Source: a virus
DNA length: 64,000 bases
IMG/VR virus record: IMGVR_UViG_3300031576_000021
Coordinates: 1-64,000 of that record
Reading direction: 5' to 3' (one strand)
Part shown: piece by piece, positions 52,549 through 56,761 of the stretch
How the letters are laid out: each line of letters begins with the position of its first letter
How positions within the stretch are numbered: position 1 is the first letter of the stretch
Position numbers and translations under genes: made by a program
Notes under the pieces: generated by a model
Database searches by the model: none
What the model saw: only the letters and a program-made list of their open reading frames with translations
What the model was told of the DNA's origin: nothing

Positions 52549-52938
52549 GTGGTAGAGCGACCAGTGGAGGGGATGCGGATGGCGGATGGACGGGAGGGCG
52601 CAAGCAATGACCGGGTACGGGGTCCATGTCGCTACTGCCCGGCACAAATCATCTGGGGGTTCCACAAGCCGACGCGGCGGATGCTACTGTTCGACCAGGA
52701 ACTGTTCTGGCGCCGCGAGGTGCAGCCACGACGGCGGTGGTACCTCCTGCCCGATGCGCGTGGCTTCCGGGCGTACCTGGAGCACGAGGTGCCGGCCGGG
52801 AGCGACGTCAACCTCGATCGGGTCTATGTCGTCCACTTCGCGACCTGTCCCGGCCGCCGGCAGCAAAGCACTGAGCACCTGGAAGATGCCGTGCTGGCCC
52901 GCTACGAGGAGTATCGTCGGATGATGGTGACTCCATGA
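52549..52938 (+). CDS. Small Zn-finger protein, paralog of 49397-49711
   Basis: CRYCPAQIIW...VVHFATCP; true start may be further downstream. Confidence 0.6.
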   Translation: MVERPVEGMRMADGREGASNDRVRGPCRYCPAQIIWGFHKPTRRMLLFDQELFWRREVQPRRRWYLLPDARGFRAYLEHEVPAGSDVNLDRVYVVHFATCPGRRQQSTEHLEDAVLARYEEYRRMMVTP

Positions 52939-53072
52939 GCGTGATCCTGTGCGTGGCGGTAGTGACGGCTGCGGCCGTGTGGTGGGCAGCGCGATGATCC
53001 TGGCTAAGCGCGAGACCACGATGGGCATGGGCGTCACATGCGGACTCAAGTCGGTTGGCGAGGGGCGCGTCT

Positions 53073-53196
53073 ATGACGTCGCGCCATTGGTATCTGGTAT
53101 TCAGCACGCCGCGCGGCATCCTGCGGTACGCTGGGTCGATCACGCAGGCGAACCGAGCCGTGCTCGAGCGTAAGCGCAGCCTCACGCTCCACGTCT
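53073..53196 (+). pseudogene. 5' part of a 48-aa gene interrupted by the IS1-like element (3' part at 55799-55821)
   Basis: Removing the element and one TSD restores MTSRHWYLVF...LTLHVYGDVRYG*, whose end overlaps the next ATG at 55814. Confidence 0.65.
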
Positions 53197-53409
53197 GGTG
53201 CTGTCCTAATTCGGCGTGAAGTGTCCTAGTATGCGCGCCCATCGGCATGGACCCGATGGGCGACATCTCGGCGGAGCTGCTGACGGCCGACCAGATTGAG
53301 CCGGCGGGACTATCGGCAGACTTTCACGGGGTCTTTAGACGCCTCTCCTTATCACGCCATTCCGGGAAGCCAGGGGTGCTGTCCTACTTAGGACACTCCC
53401 GCATCGAAA

Positions 53410-54375
53410 TTAGGACAGTCCCCCCTTGATGACCCGCAAGTGGTTCGGGCGCGGTCCTCGCGGCCCGCGGAAGCTCCCCCGCCGCTCGCCCTTCGCCTGC
53501 GCGGCGGTGGACCCTGCCGGGATCGGCGCGGGCGCAGTCGGCTCCGGTGCCTCGAACGCGGCGTGCAGTAGCTCGGCGATCGACCACACGTGATCCGTCA
53601 GGCCCGCCTCCATGGCGGGAGTACACCGCAGCGTCTCGTGGACGCGGCAGAAGTTGAAGTGGGCGACGAACAGCCCCACGGCTGCTTCCAGGTTCCGCAG
53701 CCGCTTCGAATGCGAGATGGTCAACCGGGCGAAGCGCTTGAGCGACACGCGCACCGACAGATTCAGCCGCTCGCTGTAGGACGTGCTGATTTCCCCCCAG
53801 GCCGGATCGCCCAACACGGCAGTCTTGGTCACGCGACTGATCTTGCCGGGCGAGTAGCGCAACGCGGCCTGCTGCGCCTGGGGCACCGTGTAGTCCTTGT
53901 CCACGGTGCCGAAATCCACGTCGGCGCCGAAGTGCCGCGAGATGGCCTCGGGGTAGCCGTTCCATGCGTCGGTGCTGATCTGCGGACGGCCCAGCACCCG
54001 CAACCGGAGGTCCTGCGCGAACGCGTCGGCGTTGTCGCCCGTGCGCTTCCCGACCCGGTACGAGAGAATGAGCTTGGACACCGCGTCCATGGCGAGAAAG
54101 ACGTACTGGTCGCCGTACTCCCTCGGGTCGTCCTGCCGAAGCCGGCGCTGCTTCTTCTGCACGAACGTCCATAGCTCGTCGGCCTGGATGAGCGTCGCGC
54201 GCACGTCCCGCACGCGGGCATCGTGCAGCCGGGCGCACGCTTCGCCCACCGTGACGCCCAGCCGCATGATCGTGTCCCGGTGGACATCGAGCAGCCGCTC
54301 GGCCGCCCGAATGCTCACGCCGTCCACGAGGGCTGCGGCGACTTGGGCTTTCTTCTCAAATGGCAGCGTGTGCAT
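53410..54375 (-). CDS. IS1-family DDE transposase
   Basis: HTH (GVSIRAAERLL); ADELWTFV, ISTDAW, STSYSERLN, NFCRVH...TPAM. Confidence 0.9.
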   Translation of the reverse strand: MHTLPFEKKAQVAAALVDGVSIRAAERLLDVHRDTIMRLGVTVGEACARLHDARVRDVRATLIQADELWTFVQKKQRRLRQDDPREYGDQYVFLAMDAVSKLILSYRVGKRTGDNADAFAQDLRLRVLGRPQISTDAWNGYPEAISRHFGADVDFGTVDKDYTVPQAQQAALRYSPGKISRVTKTAVLGDPAWGEISTSYSERLNLSVRVSLKRFARLTISHSKRLRNLEAAVGLFVAHFNFCRVHETLRCTPAMEAGLTDHVWSIAELLHAAFEAPEPTAPAPIPAGSTAAQAKGERRGSFRGPRGPRPNHLRVIKGGLS

Positions 54376-54380
54376 GGGGA

Positions 54381-54446
54381 CATTTGTAGCTACAAACGCG
54401 CCACAAGTCAAGGGGTGGACTTCACGCCCATTTGTCGCTACAAACG
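54381..54446. promoter_or_regulatory. Divergent promoters with twin palindromic operators
   Basis: TTTGTAGCTACAAA at 54383-54396 and TTTGTCGCTACAAA at 54431-54444; TTGACT-17-TACAAA (-) and TGGACT-17-TACAAA (+). Confidence 0.75.
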
Positions 54447-54450
54447 GTTC

Positions 54451-54624
54451 ATGCCACGTCGCAAGGTCAAGGCCGAACGTAAGGAAGCGGTTGTCCGGTT
54501 GCGGGTGACGGAGGAACAGCGCCGCATGTTGTTCGCGGCAGCCCAGCACGCCGGGTTGGAGTTGAGCGCCTGGTTGCGTTCACTTGGGTTGCGGGAGGCC
54601 CGCCGAATCGAATCGTCCGCGTAG
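54451..54624 (+). CDS. Ribbon-helix-helix protein (MobC/DUF1778-like)
   Basis: RKEAVVRLRVTEEQRRMLFAAAQHAGLELSAWLR. Confidence 0.85.
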   Translation: MPRRKVKAERKEAVVRLRVTEEQRRMLFAAAQHAGLELSAWLRSLGLREARRIESSA

Positions 54625-54778
54625 GGGGGGGGCTTGCGGTCAAGGCTCGTGCGGATTAGGTGGCAGGGTCGCCGCCTGAAACCCTAAGCGCTTGGCTGAC
54701 TTGGGTGCGTCTTGGGTATGGCCTTGATCGCGGGAACGCGATAGGTAGGCCAAAGAGGGAAGAGAAGAGCCCCTTGGC

Positions 54779-54870
54779 GGCGAGGTGTGTGAGCCAGGTT
54801 GAAACAGTCGGACTCAAAATCCGGTGAGCGCTTACCCGCTCCGTCCGTTCGAATCGGACCCTCGCCGCCA
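54779..54870 (+). tRNA. Class II tRNA, anticodon CAA (nominally Leu) with a Ser-type body
   Basis: GGCGAGG/CCTCGCC acceptor, G73, encoded CCA; TCGGA-CT CAA AA-TCCGG; V arm GAGCG/CGCTC; GTCCG-TTCGAAT-CGGAC. Confidence 0.92.
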
Positions 54871-54957
54871 AGGCGCTTTTCTCTCGGTACGTGCCCCTTC
54901 TGCCCCTGCGCCAGCATGTGCTGCGTGCAAGCTGGCAGCGCGTGCTAGCTATCGCAT

Positions 54958-54986
54958 CTATTGGCCTGTTGCCGTCCTTGTGTCAA
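54958..54986 (-). promoter_or_regulatory. TTGACACAA-class promoter, antisense to the tRNA
   Basis: Reverse complement reads TTGACACAAGGACGGCAACAGGCCAATAG. Confidence 0.5.
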
Positions 54987-55283
54987 GCTGCGCTTGACTA
55001 GCCCGCGACCAACGGTCGCGCATGCTTGTTCGTGTTCCAACGCATTTCCCTAGGCTTAGCGGCGACCGTTCAACTTAGGACACTGGTTCATTCGACTTAG
55101 GACAGATAGCCCCTAATTCGGACAGCGTCAAGCCAGGCACCCGTTTGGGGCATTGGGGGGGGCTTGATCAATTGCGGTGCTTGATTAATTGTTAAGGGCC
55201 CCATATGTAGGGGGGGCAGGCCGCAGGGGCACTAGGGGGTCCAGGGAGGGGCCGTGGGGAAGTTGTAGGATTCGTAGCTCTGA

Positions 55284-55440
55284 GAGGCCGGATATTCCCC
55301 GACGATGCGTACTTTCGCGGCATGGCGCGATGCGGCCTCAAGCGATCGCGCCACACTCGCGTCGCGCCTCGTGCCATCCAGCTCGATGAAGAACATGTAC
55401 GTTTCCGGCTGCCCGTGAACCGGCCTGGAGATGATCACGG
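55284..55440 (-). pseudogene. pheA: Fragment of the prephenate dehydratase ACT domain
   Basis: VIISRPVHGQPETYMFFIELDG...VARSLE...VRIVGEYP matches the ESRP...Y.FF.D..G...LGSYP C-terminus of PheA. Confidence 0.7.
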
Positions 55441-55813
55441 AGGAGCTGCGTCTCGACGTCAAGCTCGCCCTGGTGGGCCATGATCGCGGCAGGATCAACG
55501 GGCCGCGCGGGGAATCGGTGCGTCGGATGAACACGACATCGACAGCTCGACGACGACAACCTCAACGGAGGACATATCTGGACGATTGCCGAGCTGGCGG
55601 ACGCGGCCCTGACTGCGTCCGACGCCGACGCCGCTCCCCACGCCAGATCAGCAGACGTTCCCCGGCATGAGCGCGGCACAGGCGAAGAACGATCCGAAGG
55701 GCGTCACGTTGCGGCGGCTCCGCCTCACGATAATAAGGGGCGGGCGGAAATGAAGACACGACGCGCGAGTGTCCTACTTAGGACAGCACCCCACGTCTAT
55801 GGGGACGTGCGGT

Positions 55814-56068
55814 ATGGGTGACGACCAGCTCCTCTATCGCGGACTCGGCGAGCGTCACGACGAGACGCACGAGTTCATCCGCAAGCGGATCGAGCTGGGG
55901 CTGTCCGTGGAAGGAGCCGCGCGGCGCATGGGACTATCGCCCGATGTTGTCGAGGCACTCGAAGCGGGCAATCTCGTGTGCCGGGACGCGGACGGCTGGA
56001 AGCGGGTCCTGGCCCTGCTCGACGATCCCGAGGCCGAAGACTTGACACAAGACGAGAGAACCGGCTAG
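55814..56068 (+). CDS. XRE-like HTH protein
   Basis: RKRIELGLSVEGAARRMGLSPDVVEALEAG. Confidence 0.75.
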   Translation: MGDDQLLYRGLGERHDETHEFIRKRIELGLSVEGAARRMGLSPDVVEALEAGNLVCRDADGWKRVLALLDDPEAEDLTQDERTG

Positions 56069-56071
56069 AGG
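56042..56071 (+). promoter_or_regulatory. TTGACACAA-class promoter
   Basis: TTGACA-18-TAGAGG. Confidence 0.5.
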
Positions 56072-56761
56072 GCAGCCCATGGGGTTCCTCTACATCGCGT
56101 CGCACGGCGAGGGTGACGAGCGGGAGTTCATCGGCGCGGTCGATCCCGTGACGCAAGAGTGGATGCCCTTTCTGGCCGAGACCGAGGATGACCTGGTGAC
56201 ACTGCGCGAGTATGCGCGGGCGTTTGCCGACCAGACCGGCGTGCGGGTGCTGCTCCGACGGTTCGAGACCGCCGCCGAGGAAATGATCGAGCCGTCGGGA
56301 GGGCATGATGGCGGAAGAGACGAGTCCGAAGCGCGGCCGGAAGCTGGTGAAGAATCGGCTACTGGCGCAGATCGACAAGGTGATGCGGGTCCTGGGCGAG
56401 ATGACGCCGGAGGAGCTGGCGTTGGCGAAGCCGCACCTGGAGAAGGAGTACCCAGCACTGTTCCGGTAGTATGCCGCATGGCCCCACTGGATCATCTTTG
56501 CGGGTGCGGCCACACCGCCGATCATCACATGTGGGCAACGGGATTCGGCCCATGTCTCACCGATCGTTACGAGCATCTGGGGGTTGAGCGGTCGTGCGTT
56601 TTCTTCGACGGTTGCAAACTGACCATCGCGTGTGTGATCGCCGTCGTGCATGAGCCCGGTGATTTGCCGGCCTTCATGACCGGCACCGCCGACGTGCTTC
56701 GGCATCCGTGCGGCCATGTTGCCCGAGGAGAGCGATGCCCTGGCGAGGTCGAGGTGCCAGT

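Follow-up and report, generated by a model that had tools for sequence, protein, structure and literature searches.

The question raised by this locus is what a transfer RNA gene with the body of a serine tRNA and the anticodon of a leucine tRNA does in the genome of a virus. The stretch analysed here (the window) is the first 64 kb of the contig IMGVR_UViG_3300031576_000021, which is 88,217 bp long with 66% G+C. ARAGORN detected exactly one tRNA gene in the window, and the same one in the whole contig:

54779-54870, + strand: class II tRNA gene of 92 nt with a Ser-type body, anticodon CAA at 54815-54817 and an encoded CCA end (ARAGORN, Rfam, covariance and profile models)

This tRNA is cargo of an IS1-family transposon inserted in the phage and is not the phage's own gene. 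The account that we favour, and to which we give about an even chance of being right, is that an intact tRNA of the tRNA-Ser(CGA) lineage, now with the anticodon CAA, travels as transposon cargo and serves the transposon as a serine-charged reader of UUG. This account includes a recent insertion of the transposon into a siphophage genome.

The first-pass annotation, made from the letters of the window, had described a complete cloverleaf of this length with this anticodon, and ARAGORN confirmed it, with all fixed stem pairs standard. The tRNA has the canonical 7/5 branch. The acceptor stem has 7 bp (GGCGAGG/CCTCGCC) and the T stem 5 bp, with the T-arm/T-loop sequence GTTCGAATC. The D arm is composed of a 3-bp stem and a 13-nt loop, GAGCCAGGTTGAA, and the anticodon arm of a 5-bp stem and the loop CUCAAAA. 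In the variable region of 18 nt, T44 precedes a 5-bp stem (GAGCG/CGCTC) with a 6-nt loop, and C48 follows the stem without a gap. The acceptor end has G1:C72, G2:C71, C3:G70, G73 and the encoded CCA, and the core has G15 and C48. What had been annotated of G1:C72, G2:C71, G73, G15, C48, the D loop and the variable stem without an unpaired base before C48 was thus read in the sequence. All of the conserved tRNA positions that were checked are present, namely U8, A14, G18G19, U33, A37, the T-loop within GTTCGAATC, and CCA. A 9/3 or 8/4 branch was considered and rejected, because T8 and G9 are unable to pair with the bases 5' of the acceptor 3' strand. Standard pairs were found at 20 of the 20 positions of the four fixed stems, and compared with the tRNA-Ser consensus 7 of the stem pairs are changed on both sides and 1 on one side. 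Because all pairs are standard despite the 7 two-sided changes, the fold has been kept through considerable divergence. The kept pairing argues for selection on the fold and against a decaying pseudogene.

The Rfam tRNA model (RF00005) gave 47.0 bits against a cut-off of 29 when 451 nt were searched. The gene was missed when the 64-kb window was searched with the default filters, and a search of 2.7 kb listed tRNA-Sec alone, at 38.7 bits and under its cut-off of 47. The Rfam speed filters thus drop the gene in longer searches, which marks the sequence as unusual. Given this behaviour, routine annotation could miss such tRNA genes.

The body was compared with those of natural tRNAs by covariance models, profile hidden Markov models (HMMs) and feature counts. 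A covariance model made from this tRNA alone was run on five bacterial genomes to which transposase homologues had led; their labels are Alphaproteobacteria, Sorangium, Acidobacteriota and, for two metagenome-assembled genomes (MAGs), 'proteobacterium'. Among its 27 matches, all 17 of the 17 tRNA-Ser genes scored 60.5-85.7 bits, three tRNA-Tyr 53.5-60.6 bits, and two tRNA-Leu(CAA) 47.8-48.2 bits, one of the latter with an identical anticodon stem-loop. When the model was run on 151 genomes from the phylum of the best match, 101 had a match at E <= 1e-12, and the long tRNAs in the 29 new best loci were tRNA-Ser in 42 of 42 cases, mostly with CGA. The tRNA-Ser of three loci (L153, L260 and L262) have an enlarged D loop and the D-arm motif GYGTGAGCCNGGTTGAAAC, as in this tRNA. 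With a Leu(CAA) covariance model, 24 true tRNA-Leu scored 68.3-111.6 bits versus 47.5 for this tRNA; tRNA-Tyr scored 59.4-65.8, and the tRNA-Ser identifiable among the matches 52.4-64.0 bits. BLAST of the tRNA against the five genomes returned short chance-level pieces only.

The profile HMMs and the counts were based on a reference set of 55 distinct tRNA-Ser, 24 tRNA-Leu and 4 tRNA-Tyr. This tRNA scored 35.2 bits on the Ser profile, 6.8 on the Leu profile and 17.4 on the Tyr profile; with the anticodon masked it scored 33.6 on Ser and 3.9 on Leu, a gap of 29.7 bits. In leave-one-out scoring, true tRNA-Ser reached 47.4-72.7 bits on the Ser profile and 5.3-15.8 on the Leu profile, and true tRNA-Leu reached 38.3-68.3 bits on their own. 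The features that tell the two kinds of body apart were distributed as follows:

Position 73: G in this tRNA, G in 55/55 tRNA-Ser, A in 24/24 tRNA-Leu
Pair 2:71 as G:C: present in this tRNA, in 55/55 tRNA-Ser and in 1/24 tRNA-Leu
G15: present in this tRNA, in 52/55 tRNA-Ser and in 0/24 tRNA-Leu
C48: present in this tRNA, in 55/55 tRNA-Ser and in 0/24 tRNA-Leu
Four bases after G19: present in this tRNA, in 48/55 tRNA-Ser and in 0/24 tRNA-Leu
Variable region: 18 nt in this tRNA, 16-23 nt in tRNA-Ser, 13-17 nt in tRNA-Leu

A15, T48 and 3 nt after G19 were each found in 24/24 tRNA-Leu. G1:C72, also in this tRNA, occurs in 53/55 tRNA-Ser, and the layout of its variable arm, with one unpaired base on each side, is that of 55/55 tRNA-Ser. 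The unpaired variable-arm base in tRNA-Leu was not leaned on; wobble pairs lengthened the stem in 19 of the 24 reference tRNA-Leu. This tRNA therefore has the long variable arm of tRNA-Ser together with G73, G1:C72 and G2:C71, and departs from tRNA-Ser in the lack of A3:U70 (or G:U), in its profile score and in its anticodon. From tRNA-Leu it departs in the lack of A73, of A15 with U48 and the Leu-type D loop, and in its model score. Judged by its sequence, the body is clearly serine-type and not leucine-type, as the first-pass annotation had it, with both covariance models, the profile HMMs and the counts in agreement, and it is an outlier among tRNA-Ser. The anticodon had been said to lie one substitution from the serine anticodon CGA. 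CAA is indeed one transition (G35A) away, and the best-matching natural tRNAs are mostly tRNA-Ser(CGA).

Work on the enzymes of E. coli and T. thermophilus has established that seryl-tRNA synthetase (SerRS) reads the long arm and the acceptor end and ignores the anticodon, and that bacterial leucyl-tRNA synthetase (LeuRS) depends on A73 and a Leu-type tertiary core. By these identity rules SerRS would be the expected charging enzyme, and the tRNA would decode UUG as serine.

The tRNA gene lies in an inserted element, the features of which are, from left to right:

53189-53196: left copy of the target-site duplication CCACGTCT, 8 bp (identical 8-mer outside both ends)
53197-55790: IS1-family cargo transposon, 2,594 bp, with inverted ends GGTGCTGTCCTAA...
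53375-53406: inner repeat of the left end, complementary over 34 nt (88%) to 55759-55792
53410-54375, - strand: IS1-family transposase, 321 aa (Pfam DDE_Tnp_IS1, 24.8 bits, cut-off 24.1)
54383-54444: near-identical palindromes TTTGTAGCTACAAA and TTTGTCGCTACAAA, between the divergent transposase and ribbon-helix-helix (RHH) genes
54451-54624, + strand: RHH protein, 57 aa, NikA-like and weakly TacA-like (PF21983, 32.4 bits, cut-off 27)
54761-54778, + strand: leader arm, pairing with the trailer and the GCCA end of the tRNA
54871-54884, + strand: trailer arm of the leader/trailer helix
55068-55125: internal block of end-like TTAGGACA repeats
55759-55790: right terminal inverted repeat
55791-55798: right copy of the target-site duplication CCACGTCT, then the ATG of an 89-aa phage gene
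55799-56068: 89-aa phage gene with weak helix-turn-helix (HTH) matches

The element has the DDE_Tnp_IS1 transposase, the terminal inverted repeats and the 8-bp target duplication of the IS1 family. The transposase has 4130 relatives, most of them with PF03400 and names like 'IS1 family transposase', and the best non-self match is 74% identical. In silico excision leaves the 8-mer CCACGTCT abutting the ATG of the 89-aa HTH-like phage gene. Of 10 TAGGACA motifs in the 88-kb contig, 9 lie within 53197-55800. The outer ends are identical over 13 nt; the match between the right end and the inner left copy is longer. The recognisable genes of the transposon are the transposase and the RHH gene only, with no dedicated synthetase gene, and about 0.9 kb of it yielded no credible gene or RNA family. 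The tRNA gene follows the RHH gene in the same orientation at a distance of 154 nt, and the two palindromes are likely operators. The two left-end copies, at 53197 and 53375, are 178 bp apart, and the target duplication flanks the outer one. With two left ends and internal end-like repeats, the element may be nested or composite.

The 18 nt 5' of the tRNA pair with G73-C74-C75-A76 and the next 14 nt, so that the helix including the acceptor stem has 25-nt arms, which are 92% complementary. Of the 20 positions next to the acceptor stem on its outer side, 17 are paired; the count was 3-10 in 12 other tRNAs, 4 of them IS-linked or with an odd anticodon, and the helix is thus unique to this tRNA among the 13 scored. 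The predicted fold retains the helix (-67.5 kcal/mol, z -4.54), and 0 of 200 shuffles were as stable. Such a helix would impede RNase P and hide the CCA end.

To place the tRNA in its family, 240 IS1-like loci were compared, 80 each from species genomes, metagenomes and viral contigs, among the matches listed. A tRNA or tRNA-like gene was detected by ARAGORN within about 1 kb upstream of the transposase in 25 of them (8, 3 and 14 by source). The ochre-reading anticodon UUA was found on Leu-type bodies in 8 loci, 130-750 nt upstream of the transposase (L393-L396, L341, L362, L052 and L255), and the tRNA of L393-L396 is identical in four viral contigs (Leu 46.8, Ser 15.0). The UUA tRNA of L363 is short, 76 nt. 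No in-frame TAA was found in the transposases beside UUA tRNAs in six loci (L052, L255, L341, L362, L393 and L363), and all of these end with TGA. UAU tRNAs were present in 4 IS1-like loci, that of L055 being drawn by ARAGORN with a clear 8/4 shape of the allo-tRNA kind. Ser-type bodies with swapped anticodons were GCG in L181 (Ser 52.7, Leu 6.3), GUA in L369 (Ser 31.2, Leu 3.8) and AUA in L367 (Ser 21.1, Leu 4.8), and short bodies carried ACU, GCU, UAC and UCC. On the evidence of these sequences, IS1-like elements repeatedly carry tRNAs of Ser- or Leu-type body with swapped anticodons. This recurrence lowers the odds that CAA is a meaningless private mutation; selection on CAA here is unproven.

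One metagenome contig (L181, 2784-4183) contains a Gly-like UCC tRNA, a 73-nt GCG tRNA and the 96-nt Ser-bodied GCG tRNA around the IS1 transposase, tRNA genes lying just downstream of it as well as upstream. This cluster of three resembles the irregular tRNA polycistrons of Mukai 2017 (PMC5389517).

Pattern scans for long-arm CAA tRNAs with G73 covered 2.9 million viral contigs. Such tRNAs were found in two unrelated viral contigs outside IS1 contexts. One (L313) adjoins a terminase and an HNH gene and is clearly Ser-like (Ser 36.4, Leu 11.0); the other (L316), with the acceptor strand GGCGGGG, is less clear in its body type (Ser 27.1, Leu 17.7). Nothing striking in the way of TTG-rich open reading frames (ORFs) was seen beside either. 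Six other viral-contig pattern matches were rejected, as they are not G73 long-arm CAA tRNAs, and the exact pattern of this tRNA with a free anticodon had no match in viral contigs. Two viral contigs (L317 and L319, one of 180 kb) have a CUA (amber) anticodon arm with an insertion in the variable region. Among 401 genomes from the phylum of genome G008 the pattern had 4 matches, of which 0 were recognised as tRNA by ARAGORN; in one of the four (L324), a CAA loop goes with a 3' half that is Ser-like. One MAG (L171 in genome G009) has a Ser-like tRNA whose anticodon, GAA, is that of phenylalanine (Ser 43.0, Leu 10.4). The same MAG holds the closest tRNA-Ser(CGA) and a UUA tRNA (L177), and no IS1 transposase was found in the 3-kb loci L171 and L177. 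A 1-kb query had no match in plasmid and phage collections. The closest transposase with DNA context is 53% identical, among the matches listed in the genome and metagenome scans. The transposases P0002-P0007, 63-74% identical, were compared as proteins.

The codon usage of the element was compared with that of the phage and of related elements. TTG makes up 6 of the 7 leucine codons of the RHH gene, compared with 5/30 in the transposase (Fisher p = 0.0012), 191/1433 (13%) in 36 phage genes (p = 3.8e-5) and 18/64 in ten RHH homologues of other IS1-like loci (p = 0.005). Read by eye, the TTG positions look like ordinary hydrophobic RHH positions. Transposases beside other swapped tRNAs were ranked by their use of the cognate codon among 130 IS1 transposase genes with GC3 (the G+C fraction at third codon positions) >= 0.6. 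Beside UAU tRNAs, L087 ranked 1st for ATA (8 codons) and L055 3rd, and the ATA codons are mostly in Val/Ile/Leu columns. For GTA, L047 ranked 3rd, L049 7th, L051 18th (marginal) and L048 82nd; for GGA, L182 was 4th and L181 77th; for CGC, L181 was 97th. The transposase of this element ranked 43rd of 130 for TTG. These observations on codon usage, which are post hoc and mixed, suggest that tRNA and element may be coupled through codon choice.

From these observations the following sequence of events can be proposed. The RHH protein would repress the transposase and RHH promoters through the two palindromes. The primary transcript would hold the tRNA in the 25-bp leader/trailer helix, which buries CCA, and maturation would thereby be limited. 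Since SerRS does not read the anticodon, the matured tRNA would be charged with serine. Ser-tRNA(CAA) would then compete with host tRNA-Leu(CAA) at UUG, which would result in Leu-to-Ser substitution. The benefit would most likely go to the transposon, for which the tRNA could act as a regulatory or addiction-like device, and the UUG-rich RHH regulator may be the target most easily affected. The phage is less likely to benefit. The first-pass annotation had cast the tRNA as a mistranslation toxin or an anti-phage or anti-host effector. We found no support for such a role, the tRNA being part of an inserted IS1-family transposon; because UUG makes up 13% of phage leucine codons, an active tRNA would damage phage proteins as well.

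A bolder form of this proposal is that IS1-family transposons serve as mobile carriers of tRNAs with swapped anticodons, be their bodies of the Ser, the Leu or another type, each tRNA being tied to its own element by codon choice. The first effect of matured Ser-tRNA(CAA) would be to ruin the UUG-rich RHH repressor, so that transposase and tRNA are de-repressed, and transposition would be governed by a bistable switch driven by mistranslation that disturbs the host or phage proteome too. We regard this extended form as improbable.

Several observations weigh against a serine-charged UUG reader that serves the transposon. The masked Ser score of 33.6 is under those of all 55 true tRNA-Ser (47.4-72.7, leave-one-out). 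The annotation's own caveat, that C3:G70 and G11:C24 differ from tRNA-Ser, holds for C3:G70, which occurs in 0/55 tRNA-Ser; it is weak for G11:C24, a pair that 3/55 tRNA-Ser have. C51:G63 and C52:G62 likewise each occur in 0/55, and with these three pairs SerRS or EF-Tu could bind less well. With its CCA end buried, the RNA may never mature. A CAA tRNA, which had been looked for as a homologue with the same anticodon in other IS1-like elements, was found in 0 of the 240 loci, where other swapped tRNAs are present, and no close homologue of the tRNA or of the element was recovered in these searches. The TTG bias of the RHH gene was noticed post hoc, and one RHH homologue (L064) has TTG at 6 of 10 leucine codons with no known CAA tRNA nearby. 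Moreover, decoding of UUG as serine would also hit the element's own RHH protein and transposase; the latter has 5 TTG codons, one of them at a column that is Leu in 157/158 homologues.

The alternative that survives best, although we hold it unlikely, is that the RNA does not take part in translation: the helix would keep the tRNA immature, and the product would be a structured regulatory RNA of the transposon or an inert relic. The 25-bp helix does take in the acceptor stem and pair G73-C74-C75-A76 with the leader, and the Rfam filters treat the sequence as atypical. There is also a precedent in the allo-tRNAs, since six variants of allo-tRNA(UAU) failed to suppress in E. coli and a non-translating role was suspected for most allo-tRNA(UAU) by Mukai et al. 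(PMC5389517). Against this, all the conserved tRNA positions that were checked are present, including the encoded CCA, and the four intact stems and Ser-type variable arm suit a synthetase, EF-Tu and the ribosome.

It is distinctly unlikely that the gene is a hitch-hiking copy of tRNA-Ser(CGA) with a recent, unselected G35A change, in which case CAA would be private, neutral or harmful, and transient. The single transition from CGA, the predominance of Ser(CGA) among the closest natural tRNAs, the lack of CAA in the 240 IS1-like loci and the presence of the element in one sample only would all be expected of such a copy. It does not account for the tRNA genes beside the transposase in 25 of the 240 loci with their recurring swapped anticodons, for the G73 long-arm CAA tRNAs of two unrelated viral contigs, for the UUG-rich RHH gene adjoining, or for a fold that is fully intact despite 7 two-sided stem changes.

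Quite improbable is a private decoder, that is, a tRNA that supplies UUG decoding for the element's UUG-rich regulator, either charged with leucine or placing serine at tolerated sites, so that codon supply gates expression. The 6/7 TTG codons of the RHH gene and the transposases rich in the cognate codon at L087, L055, L047, L049 and L182 fit this explanation. However, with G73, G15:C48 and 3.9-6.8 bits on the Leu profile this tRNA is unlikely to be charged with leucine, hosts normally own a tRNA-Leu(CAA), this transposase is not TTG-rich (rank 43/130), and the cognate codon is not enriched in L048 (GTA, 82nd), L181 (GGA, 77th; CGC, 97th) or, marginally, L051 (GTA, 18th).

The DNA was found in one sequencing run only, a cave metagenome that is its probable source, and no RNA run was listed as containing it. 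In the Logan contigs assembled from that run, 52900-56100 is on a single contig at a depth of 16.7 with 0 differences; as the sample is the same, this is no independent confirmation of the sequence. An assembly or sequencing error that hides a true CGA anticodon is scarcely credible, for although one base decides and the data come from a single sample, the separate Logan assembly shows 0 differences over 3.2 kb at that depth.

The closest known kind of tRNA is the allo-tRNAs, which occur in soil bacteria and phages, have an 8/4 or 9/3 acceptor/T branch and a Sec-like long D stem with a tetraloop, and include, in the 9/3 type, a UUG-reading anticodon (PMC5389517, Mukai 2017). Some of them inserted Ser or Ala in E. 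coli, and they are loosely linked to a transposon-related ORF and to toxin-antitoxin genes (PMC5389517). Allo-tRNAs share with this tRNA the long variable arm, G73 (or U73), a non-serine anticodon and the link to mobile elements. Unlike them, this tRNA branches in the canonical 7/5 way, and its D arm is of the ordinary Ser type, with 3 bp in the stem and 13 nt in the loop. It may thus work in the manner of an allo-tRNA and yet is not one; by score it is a divergent normal tRNA-Ser.

With tRNA-Ser(CGA) it has in common the best covariance matches, G73, G2:C71, G15:C48 and the layout of the variable arm, but it carries CAA, belongs to a transposon and is enclosed in a leader/trailer helix. The fungal tRNA-Ser(CAG) that decodes CUG is a natural mix of identity and anticodon, with the code reassigned genome-wide; it differs in its codon and in not being carried by a mobile element, as this tRNA is. 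In its classical form IS1 measures about 0.77 kb and has no cargo, whereas this element is 2.6 kb, has a single-ORF transposase of 321 aa and carries the RHH gene, the tRNA and about 0.9 kb more as cargo. In the tRNAProX of Streptomyces and Kitasatospora one amino acid's identity is likewise joined to another's anticodon, and this tRNA has a dedicated synthetase (PMC11415595). It is chromosomal and concerns other amino acids and codons, and no synthetase paralogue lies beside this tRNA.

Few natural tRNAs are known to misread sense codons, namely the fungal tRNA-Ser(CAG), the tRNAProX family of Streptomyces and some allo-tRNAs. Here the same idea is met on a serine tRNA of ordinary shape, in a transposon with exact boundaries and with a candidate regulator adjoining. 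In the literature, we found no report of canonical-shaped, IS-borne Ser-type CAA tRNAs or of tRNA cargo in the IS1 family, and 7/5 examples may be held in the supplementary figures of Mukai 2017. The compact 2.6-kb cassette can be cloned directly for tests of charging, decoding and regulation. Together with this case, the loci described above suggest that IS1-type elements are a means by which soil bacteria and their phages acquire nonsense and missense suppressor tRNAs. If true, this bears on the stability of natural genetic codes, on phage-host conflicts and on parts for code engineering.

The contig encodes a tape measure protein of 2,065 aa, a portal, a head protease, a major capsid protein, a helicase, a UvsX-like recombinase and a ParB-methyltransferase fusion, and on this gene content it is a siphophage-like tailed phage. 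Its major capsid protein is at best about 50% identical or less to those of named phages, the closest of which have Stenotrophomonas, Aeromonas, Rhodobacter, Agrobacterium, Rhizobium and Vibrio as hosts, and <= 55% identical to full-length matches from uncultured viral contigs. Five related large viral contigs have ordinary tRNAs of 72-73 nt only. Within the element, 0 sigma-70 consensus promoters were found in 54250-55250. A terminator-like hairpin at 55004-55020 follows the tRNA, on its strand, after 134 nt (1 found versus 1.5 expected by chance). The translation of 55232-55534 on the - strand shows a PheA-like C-terminal motif by eye, and Pfam gave no family for it at E <= 1. The transposon lies directly before the start of the 89-aa phage gene and may separate this gene from its promoter.

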